Shown: positions 29,436-41,001 of the stretch, piece by piece
How the letters are laid out: each line of letters starts with the position of its first letter
Numbering within the stretch: position 1 is the stretch's first letter
Sequence record: NC_054927.1
DNA length: 64,000 nt
From: Escherichia phage vB_EcoM_Ozark
Direction: 5' to 3' (one strand)
Translations under genes and position numbers: made by a program
Notes under the pieces: generated by a model
What the model was told of the DNA's origin: nothing
The model's database searches: none
What the model saw: the letters and a program-made list of their open reading frames with translations, nothing else

Positions 29436-29714
29436 TTATTCTTTAAATCTGATCAATTTATTCATAGACTTTGAAACTTCTGCACGAACCTCATGTAGAT
29501 TTTTGAGCTGTTCAAGACGCTGCGTATAGTAAGCAATTTCATCTTCTTCGAGACAGTCCTGTGAATCTTCTTTAAGATAACGTGCATAGTCCTGAAAAGC
29601 GTTACGAACTACTTCCTGAAAATCATCAAGACTTTGAATTTTCTTAGGAGCAGCAAATACACGACGAGGGGCAGTATAATACTCATAACCAAACCCTGCG
29701 CTTAATTGAGCCAT
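29436..29714 (-). CDS. Hypothetical protein (vs.3 position)
   Basis: ORF track begins at a GTG; first ATG gives a 92-aa protein [13 protein letters not shown]...; TAATG overlap with the upstream gene. Confidence 0.4.
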
Positions 29715-29980
29715 TAGTATTTTTCCTCTGGTTGGAACACTGCACGACAAGCCCACATACTGGCTTCTTTGAGTTTCGTTTTAGCAATAGTTAACTGATC
29801 GAGGCTTTCGGTGTAATTCTTCGCGAGTTCATCATCTTCACAGCTATCAAATGCTTCCCAAAATTCATCGTATAAAGCATCAAAGATAAGTCCTAAACGA
29901 ACTTCAGCGTCTTTAATAGCATTTACTTTACCGATTTTTTCGTCGGTATGTGGCTTATAACCTTTAATATCTTCAATCAT
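29714..29980 (-). CDS. Hypothetical protein (vs.4 position; candidate Acb2-like cyclic-nucleotide sponge by position only)
   Basis: ORF track begins at TTG; first ATG (29980) has a strong AGGA ribosome-binding site and gives 88 aa [15 protein letters not shown]...; assignment is positional, not verified. Confidence 0.35.
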
Positions 29981-30563: not shown

Positions 30564-30893
30564 TCAATTAGAAAATAAATTTATCCAAGATTGTTCTTTA
30601 ATTAAAAATGGCTCAGAATCATATGCCATTAAACTTTGGGTAATTAATCCTTTAAAAGGTCCATCAATAAATTCCATGGTAAAATATGGAATTTTATTCA
30701 TTAGCCGCGCATTAGGAGCAGTGCACAAAACTCTGCATCCTTTGAATACGCCTTTTTGTAATTTGTATTGCTTGGGATAAAATTCGCTCAAAATGTTGTT
30801 ATTTGCCAAAATTTCAAAATGATTCACCAATTTATTTTTAATAGTTTTTGGCGAAAAATAAAGATATTCGAAAAGCTGAGTGTCTGTCATCAT
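30564..30893 (-). CDS. Hypothetical protein
   Basis: ORF track gives 126 aa from 30944; the ATG at 30893 forms an ATGA overlap with the upstream stop and gives 109 aa ([10 protein letters not shown]...). Confidence 0.35.
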
Positions 30894-31429
30894 TGCATTC
30901 CGATTACGAAAAACTGTGGACGAGTAATACCACCAATGCAACATTTAATATTACAGCAGCAGTGTACAGTGTCAATATGGACACTATAAATCTTATCCAT
31001 ATCAGGAGATTTGACAGGCTCATCAATTATATATAAAATTCGCGAAAGCTTTAAACCTCTGAACTTGCTTCCTTTATTACCGATAAAACTGCGCACAGAA
31101 TCAGTAAATAAACGAAAACGTATATCATCATTAGAATAACGCGAAAATTCCTTTTTAATGTTATTTGCAGAAATTTTAGCGTAAGCTGAAGTATTAGAAA
31201 GAACAATAACTGTTCCGCCATCATACAACCAATTAGCAGCAAAGTTAGTCACAGCAATTGATTTACCGGATTGACGTCCACCGTCTAGTCGAAGTGTGCA
31301 ATACTGTTTAAGTAATTCTTCAAATGGCGGGATATATTCGTTTTTACAAATTTCTTCTACTCTAGCATCAGAATGGTGTGTAAAAGCATTCATCAGGGAT
31401 AGATAAGGACCAGTTAAAAATGTTCTCAT
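30890..31429 (-). CDS. Small P-loop NTPase-like protein
   Basis: 179-aa ORF; Walker A GGRQSGKS and Walker B-like LYIIDEP; C-terminal Cys cluster (HCCCNIKCC). Confidence 0.45.
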   Translation of the reverse strand: MRTFLTGPYLSLMNAFTHHSDARVEEICKNEYIPPFEELLKQYCTLRLDGGRQSGKSIAVTNFAANWLYDGGTVIVLSNTSAYAKISANNIKKEFSRYSNDDIRFRLFTDSVRSFIGNKGSKFRGLKLSRILYIIDEPVKSPDMDKIYSVHIDTVHCCCNIKCCIGGITRPQFFVIGMQ

Positions 31430-31569
31430 TTCTTCTCTCTAAATTTGGGCCATTCCGTGGCGCATGAATTGTCCATTTCTGTATTTACCCATTACCGCAC
31501 TTGGGCTCGACCTTATTACAGGTTGGCGGGAATCCCTCACAGAATCATGAGGTCCAGGTTGTTCCCATA

Positions 31570-32043
31570 TTATTTGAACGATTTAACGTACTGAATAGAA
31601 CCTTTACTATTCACGAAAGCGATTTTACCATTTTTATTATACATGGTAGCAGTACGCTGATAGCCATAAGTTTGCTTACCAGATTGATAACCAACTAATG
31701 CAAAATTATCTTCACCCATTTTATTCTGTTTAGCGCGAATGCGTTCATGACCATGTGCCATAAGAACCTTAGCATCACCAGTTGCAATGGATCGACGAGT
31801 TTTTTCATCTTCAACTGTATTAACAAAGTCGTCAAATGAATCAAATTTAGCATGAGATTTATTATACAGTTTTCCATCTACTGCATAATTATATCCCTGT
31901 ACATCCATCTCAACTTCTGTACCATCATCCAATACAGCAGTGATTTTCTGTCCTTTTTTAAATTTCAAAAGATCAGTAAAAGATTCAGCAATAATTTGAG
32001 AATTAATAGCTGCTTCAGTAATAAATTCTTGATATGTTTTCAT
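31570..32043 (-). CDS. Internal-protein-like packaged protein with capsid-targeting sequence
   Basis: 157-aa ORF beginning MKTYQEFITEA, i.e. the T4 internal-protein capsid-targeting sequence with a protease-type L/I-x-E cleavage motif. Confidence 0.6.
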   Translation of the reverse strand: MKTYQEFITEAAINSQIIAESFTDLLKFKKGQKITAVLDDGTEVEMDVQGYNYAVDGKLYNKSHAKFDSFDDFVNTVEDEKTRRSIATGDAKVLMAHGHERIRAKQNKMGEDNFALVGYQSGKQTYGYQRTATMYNKNGKIAFVNSKGSIQYVKSFK

Positions 32044-32059
32044 GTGTATCCTTTAATTT

Positions 32060-32377
32060 TTATTCTTTAGGGAAGTTTTTAGAATATGCATCATAAAGCT
32101 TATTTCCAATACGGCGGAAAACTCTAGCCGCAAAACGATTTTCTGGGTTTTTAATCATGATTTGCATCATATAAGTACCCGCGTCAGAAAGAGCTTCTTC
32201 ATAGTACCCGTTAATTTCTTTAAGAGTCCTACGTTTACCACCAGGACCATCAACAGTGATTTTCCATTTACCTGTAGAAGTGCGACTTGGCGGCTCAACT
32301 TGTTCAATCCAGATATAACCGCCTTCTACACGTTGTCCTTGGGCAGATTCTGCAATAAATTCTTTAAACGTTTTCAT
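32060..32377 (-). CDS. Internal-protein-like packaged protein with capsid-targeting sequence
   Basis: 105-aa ORF beginning MKTFKEFIAES; early-promoter element immediately upstream. Confidence 0.6.
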   Translation of the reverse strand: MKTFKEFIAESAQGQRVEGGYIWIEQVEPPSRTSTGKWKITVDGPGGKRRTLKEINGYYEEALSDAGTYMMQIMIKNPENRFAARVFRRIGNKLYDAYSKNFPKE

Positions 32378-32411
32378 ATGGTTCCTTTAAATATTTTAAT
32401 TAGTAACTATG

Positions 32412-32446
32412 AATATACTATCACAGTTCTAGGAGAAAGTAAACAA
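32412..32446 (-). promoter_or_regulatory. Early promoter upstream of an internal-protein gene
   Basis: Minus strand GTTTAC-N15-TGA-TAGTAT. Confidence 0.45.
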
Positions 32447-32448
32447 CT

Positions 32449-33417
<969 letters not shown>

Positions 33418-36125: not shown

Positions 36126-36155
36126 CCAAAAAGCCCCAACCTTTCGGTCGGGGCT
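36126..36155 (-). terminator. Terminator hairpin downstream of the 36163-36636 gene
   Basis: GCCCCGACCGAAAGGTTGGGGC hairpin with G-U pair followed by a short T-run; near-identical to the 36685 copy. Confidence 0.5.
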
Positions 36156-36162
36156 AAGAATG

Positions 36163-36636
36163 TTATTTGATTTGTTTAGCAGACCAAATGCGGTCTTTAA
36201 TAATTTTTTGGATGTCTTCAACATACTCAAGAGAGTGAGCATGTGGGTTATCTTTAAAACTATAAGCACGAGCTAACTTTTGACCTTCAGTTTTGATTAC
36301 TAAAAGCTCTTTAAGGATAGCTTCATATCTGGAGATAATTCCTTTAACAATATTTTTTTCTTGTGTAGCTTTAGGATCTGCTTTAGGAGCAGGTTTACCC
36401 GAAGCCTTTGCAAAAGCAGCGCCAGTAGCAACTAAACTTTTCCAGGCCATACTAACTGCATTCCCTGTAAATCCTTCGGCTTTCATATCACGAGCAAATT
36501 GGAATCGTGATTCATCGGAAGCATCTTTATAGGAATATTTACCCGCGGCAATGGCTGCTTTTGCGACAGCTTGAATTTCGGTGCTAGACGCTTCATTTAA
36601 CACCGCTTCATTTAAAAATTGAGTATATGATTTCAT
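36163..36636 (-). CDS. Putative packaged protein with capsid-targeting-like N-terminus
   Basis: 157-aa ORF beginning MKSYTQFLNEA (compare MKTYQEFIAEA); Ala/Lys-rich; flanked on both sides by near-identical terminator hairpins. Confidence 0.45.
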   Translation of the reverse strand: MKSYTQFLNEAVLNEASSTEIQAVAKAAIAAGKYSYKDASDESRFQFARDMKAEGFTGNAVSMAWKSLVATGAAFAKASGKPAPKADPKATQEKNIVKGIISRYEAILKELLVIKTEGQKLARAYSFKDNPHAHSLEYVEDIQKIIKDRIWSAKQIK

Positions 36637-36684
36637 CTTATTTCCTGTTTTAATTCGTGAATTTAATATACTAATATTTATACT

Positions 36685-36712
36685 AAAAAAGCCCCAACCT
36701 TTTGGCTGGGGC
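36685..36712 (-). terminator. Terminator hairpin at the distal end of the tRNA/stable-RNA operon
   Basis: GCCCCAGCCAAAAGGTTGGGGC hairpin followed by TTTTTT on the minus strand. Confidence 0.55.
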
Positions 36713-36764
36713 TAAGCCTTGCGGCAACCTTGTCGGGGTTCCACCTGCTAAGGCAAGTGTTTGT

Positions 36765-37029: not shown

Positions 37030-37105
37030 TGGTCGAGGCAGTAGGGATCGAACCTACGACCCAGGACTTAGAAGGTCCTTGCTCTTCCTTCTGAGCTATG
37101 CCCCG
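37030..37105 (-). tRNA. tRNA-Arg (anticodon UCU)
   Basis: Hand-folded cloverleaf: acceptor CGGGGCA/TGCCTCG, D-stem GCTC, anticodon loop CTTCTAA, T-loop TTCGATC, CCA encoded. Confidence 0.8.
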
Positions 37106-37109
37106 TAAT

Positions 37110-37185
37110 TGGGGTGACCGATGGGAGTCGAACCCATGACTACGAGAATCACAATCTCGAGTTCTACCAACTGAACTACGGCCAC
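37110..37185 (-). tRNA. tRNA-His (anticodon GUG)
   Basis: Hand-folded: acceptor 7 bp, anticodon stem CGAGA/TCTCG with loop TTGTGAT, T-loop TTCGACT, discriminator C, CCA encoded. Confidence 0.7.
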
Positions 37186-37299
37186 ATTAATACCTACTCC
37201 AATAATCAAGATGTCTTCACACGAAATTAAGAGAAGAGTGATCAGTTCAACCCCTATAATCGCGTCAAGTAGATATTAATGTGACAGTTGTCACAAATT

Positions 37300-37374
37300 T
37301 GGCGGACGTGATAGGATTCGAACCTATAACCAATCGCTTAACAGGCGATCGCTCTGCCATTGAGCTACACATCC
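37300..37374 (-). tRNA. tRNA-Asn (anticodon GUU)
   Basis: Hand-folded: anticodon stem ATCGC/GCGAT, loop CTGTTAA, T-loop TTCGAAT, CCA encoded. Confidence 0.75.
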
Positions 37375-37378
37375 AAAT

Positions 37379-37465
37379 TGGTGGGGAGTGGTGGAGTCGA
37401 ACCACCCGAGTCGCAATGACAATGGATTTACAGTCCACACCGCTACCTCTACGGGATAACTCCCC
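37379..37465 (-). tRNA. tRNA-Tyr (anticodon GUA), long variable arm
   Basis: Hand-folded: exact 7-bp acceptor GGGGAGT/ACTCCCC, anticodon loop CTGTAAA, ~15-nt variable arm, T-loop TTCGACT, CCA encoded. Confidence 0.7.
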
Positions 37466-37478
37466 TTAATTCTTAATT

Positions 37479-37553
37479 TGGTGGCCCTGGGTGGAATTGA
37501 ACCACCATCTGGCGATTATGAGTCGCTTGCTTGAACCTTCCAGCTACAGGGCC
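37479..37553 (-). tRNA. tRNA with anticodon CAU (elongator Met or Ile with modified C34)
   Basis: Hand-folded: exact acceptor GGCCCTG/CAGGGCC, anticodon loop CTCATAA, T-loop TTCAATT, CCA encoded. Confidence 0.7.
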
Positions 37554-37554
37554 T

Positions 37555-37630
37555 TGGTGCTGATTGACGGAATCGAACCGCCGACCTTCTCATTACAAGT
37601 GAGTTGCTCTACCTACTGAGCTAAATCAGC
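37555..37630 (-). tRNA. tRNA-Thr (anticodon UGU)
   Basis: Hand-folded: exact acceptor GCTGATT/AATCAGC, anticodon loop CTTGTAA, T-loop TTCGATT, CCA encoded. Confidence 0.75.
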
Positions 37631-37635
37631 AAAAC

Positions 37636-37725
37636 TGGCGGAGGCGATAGGATTTGAACCTATGAGTCGCCGGAGCGACTGCCGGTTTTCAAGACCGGTG
37701 CATTAAACCACTCTGCCACGCCTCC
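37636..37725 (-). tRNA. tRNA-Ser (anticodon UGA), long variable arm
   Basis: Hand-folded: exact acceptor GGAGGCG/CGCCTCC, anticodon stem CCGGT/ACCGG with loop CTTGAAA, variable-arm hairpin GTCGC/GCGAC, CCA encoded. Confidence 0.8.
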
Positions 37726-37727
37726 AG

Positions 37728-37801
37728 TCTCCATACAAGGATTTGAACCTTGGACCTCCTGATCCCAAATCAGGCGCTCTACCAAACTGAGCTACACGGA
37801 G
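37728..37801 (-). tRNA. tRNA-Pro (anticodon UGG)
   Basis: Hand-folded: anticodon stem CCTGA/TCAGG, loop TTTGGGA, T-loop TTCAAAT; CCA not encoded. Confidence 0.75.
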
Positions 37802-37811
37802 TAAATTAAAT

Positions 37812-37885
<74 letters not shown>

Positions 37886-37890
37886 AAATT

Positions 37891-37977
37891 TGGTGCGAGA
37901 AGTGGGACTCGAACCCACAAGGAAATCATTCCGCAGCATTTTAAGTGCTGTGCCTTTACCAATTTGACCATTCTCGC
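37891..37977 (-). tRNA. tRNA-Leu (anticodon UAA), long variable arm
   Basis: Hand-folded: exact acceptor GCGAGAA/TTCTCGC, anticodon stem CAGCA/TGCTG with loop CTTAAAA, T-loop TTCGAGT, CCA encoded. Confidence 0.8.
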
Positions 37978-39580: not shown

Positions 39581-39623
39581 TTGATAGGGTAATAGTATCA
39601 CTACCCTATCTAAAAGTAAACTT
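39581..39623 (-). promoter_or_regulatory. Early promoter / stem-loop cassette
   Basis: -10 element TGATACTAT embedded in the loop of a gataggg/ccctatc inverted repeat; GTTTAC -35 at 39616-39621. Confidence 0.45.
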
Positions 39624-39855
39624 ATTTTTTACGAAAAATTGATTTATTTTCTGCTGCCCATTTTTCAATAACTGCAGCAGGACCAGTAACAACAATTTTA
39701 TCACCGTAATCTTCTGCAGCGAGTTGACCGAAATTATCTAATGCATCACGAAGAACTCCATGAGGCATTTCGCCCATTTTATCCTTCTTGCCAATGTAAA
39801 TAAACTCAACTTTTACATCAACAGCTTCAGCAATAAATTCTTGATATGTTTTCAT
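39622..39855 (-). CDS. Internal-protein-like packaged protein with capsid-targeting sequence
   Basis: ORF track begins at GTG (39873); the ATG at 39855 gives a 77-aa protein starting MKTYQEFIAEA, the canonical internal-protein capsid-targeting sequence; early promoter upstream. Confidence 0.55.
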   Translation of the reverse strand: MKTYQEFIAEAVDVKVEFIYIGKKDKMGEMPHGVLRDALDNFGQLAAEDYGDKIVVTGPAAVIEKWAAENKSIFRKK

Positions 39856-39888
39856 TTTATTCTCCAATTTCACATTTGTTTTGATAGG

Positions 39889-39923
39889 GTAATAGTATCA
39901 CTACTAAAACCCCGTGTAAACAA
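39889..39923 (-). promoter_or_regulatory. Early promoter upstream of the MKTYQEFIAEA internal-protein gene
   Basis: Minus strand GTTTAC-N15-TGA-TACTAT; shares extended flank (ttgatagggtaatagtatcactac) with the 39581 copy. Confidence 0.5.
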
Positions 39924-39940
39924 CTTTGTGAAATTGTTTA

Positions 39941-40231
39941 TTACAAAAGATTTTTAGCAATAATCTTGAGATGTGCTGCAGAAATGTGTTTAGCTTTAAA
40001 CAACGCAGTTTCTTCGGCAGGAGAGATAACGATTGTAGCACCATCCTTTTTAGCAGACCACCCATCACCTAGGTAAACAGTACCTTTGATTTCTTCGCCA
40101 TCAACCAGACTAATCATTGGTTTACCTTCTCGTCCTTTATTTGCTTTAATAACTTCAGAAGTAAGAGTAGCTTCGGTAATGGTAGAAACCGGGGTAGTTG
40201 TAGTAGAAGTAAATTCTTTAAATGTTTTCAT
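39941..40231 (-). CDS. Putative packaged protein with capsid-targeting-like N-terminus
   Basis: 96-aa ORF starting MKTFKEF followed by a Thr-rich segment and ITE-A protease-type site; promoter/stem-loop cassette upstream. Confidence 0.45.
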   Translation of the reverse strand: MKTFKEFTSTTTTPVSTITEATLTSEVIKANKGREGKPMISLVDGEEIKGTVYLGDGWSAKKDGATIVISPAEETALFKAKHISAAHLKIIAKNLL

Positions 40232-40251
40232 TTTTATTTTCCTAATTAATT

Positions 40252-40294
40252 TTGATGAGGTAATAGTATCACTACCTCATCAGTATGTAAACAA
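40252..40294 (-). promoter_or_regulatory. Early promoter / stem-loop cassette
   Basis: -10 element within the gatgagg/cctcatc inverted repeat; GTTTAC -35 at 40287-40292. Confidence 0.45.
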
Positions 40295-40304
40295 CTTTGT
40301 GAAA

Positions 40305-41001
<697 letters not shown>

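Follow-up and report, generated by a model that had tools for sequence, protein, structure and literature searches.

Ip10 and Ip4, two leader-bearing internal head proteins in a cassette hot spot beside the lysozyme gene of a Tequatrovirus phage

The closest described systems are the T4 internal proteins IPI*, IPII and IPIII. They share with Ip4 and Ip10 the leader, the gp21 motif and two genomic hot spots, namely the e-vs.8 interval and the ipI locus beside 57B, and all of these proteins are small, basic and dispensable, but the mature parts of the T4 proteins show no detectable sequence similarity to those of Ip4 and Ip10. According to PMC9391042, which cites Mullaney and Black (1996), the T4 prohead protease gp21 cuts an I-x-E motif. 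The reported inhibitor-target pairs are Ip1 with GmrSD-CT596, Ip2 with GmrSD-ECOR21 and Ip3 with GmrSD-ECOR17, and no cross-protection was seen (PMC12373910); IPIII is reported to remain active from the cytoplasm when its leader is removed (PMC9391042). A further member, Bas37_0260, was described as an injected inhibitor of McrBC (bioRxiv 10.1101/2025.11.20.689424). It has the same leader-plus-cargo design as Ip4 and Ip10, although its cargo is unrelated to theirs and its orthologue in the DNA analyzed here lies in the ipI locus rather than the e locus. All four internal proteins with known targets (Ip1, Ip2, Ip3 and Bas37_0260) inhibit modification-dependent (type IV) restriction enzymes. Internal proteins act ahead of any phage gene expression and help to set the host range of T4-like phages, therapy phages included. 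Ip4 is among the most widespread of them and is carried by T2, and the targets of Ip4 and Ip10 would extend the catalogue of defences against modified DNA.

For the two genes themselves, the nearest relatives are found in other T4-like phages. IpIV (Ip4) of T2 and PP01 matches the protein described here in leader, in length and in the position of its gene beside the lysozyme gene e; ipIV is the sole ip gene in the T2 interval, whereas here ip10 sits between ipIV and e. The Ip10 proteins of PP01, SP18, VR7 and 'Pol' have the same leader type and occupy the same e-vs.8 locus. In this study, we analyzed a stretch of 64,000 nucleotides (hereafter, the window), which is a segment of a Tequatrovirus genome, and compared its e-vs.8 locus with these systems.

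Identity and families of the two genes

Two adjacent internal-protein ORFs beside lysozyme had been proposed at 31570-32377 by a first-pass annotation of the sequence, and both their coordinates and their adjacency to e were borne out, the two ORFs lying on the minus strand (Table 1). The capsid-targeting starts MKTYQEFITEA and MKTFKEFIAES are also as quoted there, and removal of 10 residues leaves 147 and 95 aa, respectively. The two ORFs are separated by 16 nt, both have an AAGGA ribosome-binding site 5-6 nt ahead of the ATG, and vs.8 is the next gene downstream of ipIV. Escherichia phages vB_EcoM_G50, GEP001 and HZ_ZJUN4 share the segment 31400-32500 with 100% identity, and at least its flanks are matched by 766 phage records. 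Both ORFs are real genes with intact reading frames under purifying selection. When ipIV was compared with six related phages, 9-16 synonymous and 0 non-synonymous differences were observed, i.e., zero amino-acid change among the seven Tequatrovirus genomes compared; against the same six phages, dN/dS was 0.08-0.36 for ip10 versus 0.01-0.06 for e.

Table 1. Features of the ip10-ipIV locus and of related genes in the window
Feature	Position	Strand	Description
vs.4	29714-29980	minus	86/88 identical to orthologues with Pfam PF24729 (Acb2_Tad1_hairpin, anti-CBASS sponge family)
Left-hand junction	31439-31569	minus	vs.8 5' remnant abuts ipIV stop codon; denV there in T4
ipIV (ip4)	31570-32043	minus	ORF, 157 aa, starts MKTYQEFITEA
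ipIV leader	32014-32043	minus	Codons 1-10, ends I8-T-E10, then A
RBS+leader handle of ipIV	32009-32061	minus	Copy of repeat D1; 89-91% identity to T4 ipII and ipIII handles
ip10	32060-32377	minus	ORF, 105 aa, starts MKTFKEFIAES
ip10 leader	32348-32377	minus	Codons 1-10, ends I8-A-E10, then S
RBS+leader handle of ip10	32343-32395	minus	Copy of repeat D1; right-hand cassette junction relative to T4 and T2
Early-type promoter-like element	32415-32444	minus	GTTTAC-N18-TAGTAT, between e and ip10; repeat family D5; putative function
Lysozyme e	32449-32943	minus	97.6% identity to T4 e; adjoins ip10 on upstream side
Two T4 late-promoter boxes	32957-32977	minus	TATAAATA; upstream of e; same pair in T4
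157-aa ORF	36163-36636	minus	MKSYTQFLNEA; degenerate leader, L-N-E then A; fifth RBS+leader repeat copy
10 tRNA genes	37030-37977	minus	Arg, His, Asn, Tyr, Met, Thr, Ser, Pro, Gly, Leu; between two ip loci
77-aa leader-bearing protein	39622-39855	minus	MKTYQEFIAEA..., phrog_8111; ipI locus; 74/77 identical to Bas37_0260 of phage KarlGJung
IPI	39941-40231		ipI locus; Pfam IPI_T4, E=7.5e-54

Ip4 is 100% identical to IpIV of T2 and of PP01 and 99% identical to UniProt Q38388, 'Ip4 [Enterobacteria phage K3]'. It matches Pfam PF24183 (DUF7412) with E=6e-96 and 319 bits (gathering cut-off 27), covering residues 1-157 of the 158-position profile, and is assigned to phrog_3155, 'internal virion protein'. 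A tblastn search placed the family in 469 phage records, with identities of at least 95% in Tequatrovirus and 61-72% in Klebsiella, Salmonella and Serratia phages; family members are carried by phages of Escherichia, Klebsiella, Salmonella, Serratia and Yersinia. The orthologue in Klebsiella phage ValerieMcCarty03, gp127, has 70% identity over its full length and adjoins the lysozyme gene, and 66/66 peptides of this protein were reported by mass spectrometry of purified virions (PMC13119998).

Ip10 belongs to phrog_3966 (E=2e-33 with the whole sequence, E=5e-28 when just the mature part is used) and to no Pfam family. It is 97% identical to PP01 Ip10, which is annotated at the same position, and 70-72% identical to Ip10 of SP18 and VR7. 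The family was found by tblastn in 188 phage records from Tequatrovirus, Mosigvirus, Gaprivervirus (72%) and Karamvirus (about 50%), with 40 invariant columns across the four genera. In PP01, the two genes are annotated as 'IpIV internal head protein' and 'Ip10 internal head protein'. On sequence grounds, ipIV and ip10 thus encode Ip4 and Ip10, internal head proteins already named in T4-like phages, and their cargos are not new. The earlier reading of the products as internal proteins stands, but not as a novelty, the cargos having already been named Ip4/DUF7412 and Ip10; both genes are already known and ordinary and lie in a known hot spot.

Compared with PP01 and the common Tequatrovirus allele, Ip10 shows three amino-acid differences, all within residues 4-13, and its leader is of the ipI-like form MKTFKEF where other Ip10 alleles have MKTYQEF. 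Because all of the differences are confined to this stretch and the leader is ipI-like, the pattern suggests that patch-wise gene conversion between leader handles may have shaped this allele. Separately, ORF124c of RB69 (2462-2734), the Mosigvirus member of the family, is an Ip10 homologue with a C-terminal frameshift, reading ...RFAAESLPSYW in place of ...RFAARVFRRIGNKL, the latter being readable in another frame; this ORF is a decaying Ip10 copy.

Leaders and cargos

Both leaders end in the gp21 motif (L/I)-x-E. Six-frame translation of the window yields four instances of the leader pattern MK[TS][YF]x[EQ]F[ILT]x[ES], against none in 600 shuffles. At the DNA level, a 53-nt RBS+leader repeat (family D1) is present in five copies, one for each leader-bearing ORF in the window. 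The promoter/RBS/leader DNA upstream of the two genes is 89-94% identical to its T4 ipII and ipIII counterpart, and the segment 32012-32056 of the ipIV handle matches both T4 handles at 91%. Further examination of Ip4 revealed a second I/L/M-x-E site at residues 18-20 (I18-A-E20, followed by S; 31984-31992), which is kept in 14 of 14 full-length homologues. Since this cleavage-type site is conserved, mature Ip4 may start at S21. The predicted mature Ip4 has 147 aa, or 137 aa with the second site cut, with a pI of 9.1-9.3 and a mass of about 16 kDa, and the predicted mature Ip10 has 95 aa (32063-32347), with a pI of 9.6, a net charge of +5 and a mass of about 11 kDa. Both mature proteins are accordingly calculated to be basic (pI 9.1-9.6, net +4/+5), like T4 IPII and IPIII.

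The view that a conserved leader here carries unrelated cargo was upheld: with the leader removed, each mature part matches its own PHROG family only. In BLASTP comparisons with T4 IPII, T4 IPIII and the IPI of the window, most alignments span residues 1-17 at most, and the IPIII matches stop at the leader. Neither Ip4 nor Ip10 matches Pfam IPI_T4, and a tblastn search with the mature parts of T4 IPII and IPIII returned nothing in the whole window. As no relationship links the mature parts to T4 IPI, IPII and IPIII, and the IPII and IPIII cargos are absent from the window, the cargos are not close copies of the known T4 proteins, in line with what had been proposed. Two apparent relationships were considered and rejected. 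Homology of IpIV to T4 IPII (a 28-34% alignment) or to IPI rested on longer low-identity alignments that lose support without the leader, and a cross-family match to phrog_4363 (E=0.008) was gone once the leader had been removed.

No known fold was matched by mature Ip4 or mature Ip10. The predicted model of Ip4 is of moderate quality (pLDDT 73, pTM 0.65) and combines an N-terminal helix and a beta-hairpin with three short helices and a C-terminal sheet of four strands, together with a loop, NKxGEDNF, that is of low confidence yet invariant; the model has no match among solved structures. The AlphaFold model of Ip10 is unusable (pLDDT 46, from a four-sequence alignment). A weak signal to a CsgC/CsgH-like beta-sandwich (PF21112, PDB 2n59) recurred for residues 15-86 of mature Ip10 and was never significant (Pfam E=0.1; PDB 2n59 E=0.3-0.4; hhalign probability 38% over 38 columns). 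Moreover, CsgH does not have the long C-terminal helix that is predicted for Ip10, and a CsgH-like or filamin-like Ig fold is taken here as a lead only. An exhaustive HMMER search with mature Ip10 yielded one true relative. Giant repeat proteins with FG-GAP, RTX, CBM6 and filamin domains also appeared in this search, and their multi-stretch matches were dismissed as noise from composition or beta-hairpins, since no relationship links the target domains with one another.

The e-vs.8 interval and its expression signals

Homology to T4 extends through vs.8 and breaks off exactly at position 31570, the ipIV stop codon, whose T4 counterpart is the denV stop. It picks up again at 32345, where the ip10 leader codons end, and spans e. 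Between these junctions, T4 carries the ipIII cargo, ipII and denV (about 1.4 kb) and the window carries the ip10 cargo and ipIV (0.77 kb). Two alignments to T2 overlap on its single ipIV handle, and T2 therefore lacks exactly the ip10 cassette. At the left-hand side, the T4-annotated 5' end of vs.8 (MRDSRQPVIRSS...) can be recognised at 31439-31540 (minus strand), where a stop codon interrupts it; vs.8 is intact as an ORF (30890-31429, minus strand) that starts 40 codons later than in the T4 annotation.

The content of this interval differs among relatives. It holds ipIII-ipII in T4, ipIV in T2 and denV-ip10-ORF127c-ip7 in VR7; four leader-bearing genes are found in RB69 and two in CC31, and in Bas37 the interval is devoid of ip genes. 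In other genera, the interval is filled by different leader-bearing cargos, with or without denV. The endonuclease V gene denV is absent from the locus and from all 64 kb of the window, as in T2. It lies between ipII and vs.8 in T4, between e and ip10 in slur02 and PM105, and in an e-vs.8 interval with no ip gene in Bas37; given these varying positions, denV behaves as a mobile cassette in the e-vs.8 hot spot. The original description of Ip4-Ip10 is reportedly that of Repoila et al. 1994. The varied cargos fit the polymorphism of internal-protein loci, which PMC3012670 and PMC12373910 attribute to the same authors.

With regard to expression, the two late-promoter boxes upstream of e are the nearest late promoters able to drive read-through of e-ip10-ipIV, and no terminator-like site was detected on the minus strand between e, ip10 and ipIV. 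T4 ipIII is preceded by a conserved counterpart of the early-type promoter-like element found between e and ip10, and further copies of the GTTTAC box of this element stand ahead of ipI and of the gene for the 77-aa leader-bearing protein. This element was missed by a generic promoter scan because it scores only 8/12 against the sigma-70 consensus. In the ipI locus, an 85-nt promoter/5'UTR repeat precedes both ip genes (39855-39939 and 40226-40310), and the GTTTAC box is also found before ip10 (32439-32463). This shared repeat and box indicate that the cassettes carry, besides the leader, a conserved, putative early-type promoter of their own. By analogy with T4 IPI-III, we infer that the timing of ip10 and ipIV expression would allow both proteins to be made in time for head assembly. 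A search for structured RNA across the interval gave a sub-threshold, spurious lncRNA match only.

Possible roles and neighbouring counter-defence genes

That cargo of this kind is a likely place to look for anti-defence activities, as had been suggested from the sequence, is supported, beyond the classic work on IPI, by T4 Ip2 and Ip3 (PMC12373910) and by Bas37_0260 (bioRxiv 10.1101/2025.11.20.689424), all of which inhibit type IV enzymes. The assay of protection against restriction that the first-pass annotation proposed had in part been published already. In the screen of Silas et al. 2025 (PMC12373910, Supplementary Fig. 9), ip4-10 gave no reproducible relief from the panel of active GmrSD variants, the constructs being matched to the present genes by gene name, and T2, whose reference genome has an identical IpIV, is still restricted by GmrSD-ECOR21 and GmrSD-ECOR17 (PMC12373910). 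It follows from these two results that the targets of Ip4 and Ip10, if any, should lie elsewhere.

It is very probable that both Ip4 and Ip10 are packaged internal proteins. From their leaders, cleavage motifs and relatives, we infer that these two alleles would be both packaged and injected. Guided by the leader, they would enter the scaffolding core of the prohead, where gp21 would cut after the Glu of I-x-E, at residue 10 in both proteins and probably also at residue 20 in Ip4. The basic mature proteins would remain with the packaged DNA and enter the cell together with it. Once injected, they would most likely serve as stoichiometric inhibitors of a host enzyme acting on the incoming glucosyl-hydroxymethylcytosine DNA, to which they would bind; such an enzyme would most probably be a modification-dependent (type IV) nuclease. 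New specificity would arise when whole cargo cassettes are swapped by recombination in the promoter/RBS/leader handle, and not by point mutation. As an overall explanation, we slightly favor ip10-ipIV being a cassette in a hot spot whose products are injected inhibitors of a nuclease attacking modified phage DNA. The narrower claim that Ip4 and Ip10 inhibit modification-dependent nucleases has, in our estimate, a little under an even chance of being right. More speculatively, and more probably wrong than right, Ip4 might be an injected inhibitor of a widespread, as yet unrecognised defence against hypermodified DNA, beyond the tested GmrSD clusters and McrBC, with Ip10 as a second such inhibitor built on a small beta-rich domain. 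What points this way for Ip4 is its lack of any amino-acid change in seven Tequatrovirus genomes, its 61-72% identity in Klebsiella, Salmonella and Serratia phages and the absence of a solved-fold match.

The serious rival to the inhibitor model is a general DNA-associated structural role, in which Ip4 and Ip10 would be packaged and have no specific host target, acting as basic counter-ions or organisers of the condensed head DNA or as aids to packaging or ejection. The charge of both mature proteins agrees with such a role, as does the report that lysines of T4 internal proteins contact DNA phosphates (PMC3012670), but the equally basic IPI*, IPII and IPIII proved to be specific inhibitors. 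The strict conservation of Ip4 (dN=0) and its occurrence in phages of all five host genera named above could likewise reflect a structural function, and the published screen turned up no GmrSD target; generic charge, however, would not require a folded cargo conserved to the residue. In addition, the ip genes are dispensable and replaceable, since Bas37 has none between e and vs.8, T2 has no ip10 and T4 has neither gene. We regard a purely structural role as unlikely.

The negative GmrSD screen would also suit injected effectors whose targets are not type IV enzymes but, for example, DNA glycosylases excising (glucosyl-)hydroxymethylcytosine, other early-acting defences, or points of host takeover such as transcription or the nucleoid. 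Newly described defences do hit T-even modified bases by other chemistries (PMC13160076), other head-packaged T4 proteins, e.g., Alt, modify host proteins, and the anti-CBASS gene vs.4/Acb2 is located 2 kb away in the same accessory region. Nevertheless, neither Ip4 nor Ip10 contains an enzymatic motif or fold, and 4/4 internal proteins with known targets act on type IV restriction enzymes, which makes effectors of this kind distinctly unlikely. It is very improbable that cassette shuffling has left one gene or both to decay, no longer packaged or functional. Decay does occur in the Ip10 family, as the frameshifted RB69 ORF124c indicates, the virion-proteomic support that was found concerns the Ip4 family and not Ip10, and the 5' end of the neighbouring vs.8 is degenerate here. 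Against this, both frames are intact with good ribosome-binding sites, purifying selection is strong in ipIV and clear in ip10, the Ip10 core is kept down to about 50% identity in Karamvirus with its 40 invariant columns, and the Ip4 orthologue is abundant in virions.

The window contains no new gene or architecture and represents one more phage with the known combination of IPI, a Bas37_0260-like protein, Ip4 and Ip10. In view of the close identity of the 77-aa protein to the McrBC inhibitor Bas37_0260, the phage probably carries an anti-McrBC factor beside IPI, as far as can be judged from sequence comparison. The location of vs.4 2 kb downstream of the ip genes indicates that the accessory region holds several counter-defence genes. 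The tRNA cluster between the two ip loci differs in content from the PP01 and T2 clusters. Finally, the product of the 157-aa ORF with a degenerate leader could be an unrecognised internal protein. This ORF belongs to phrog_2280, a family of unknown function, has no Pfam match and is 153/157 identical to bas37_0244. A late-promoter box (TATAAATA) is found just upstream of it, at 36675-36682, and the ORF is bracketed by two copies of a 31-nt GC-rich hairpin (36128-36158 and 36686-36716) that are 90% identical.
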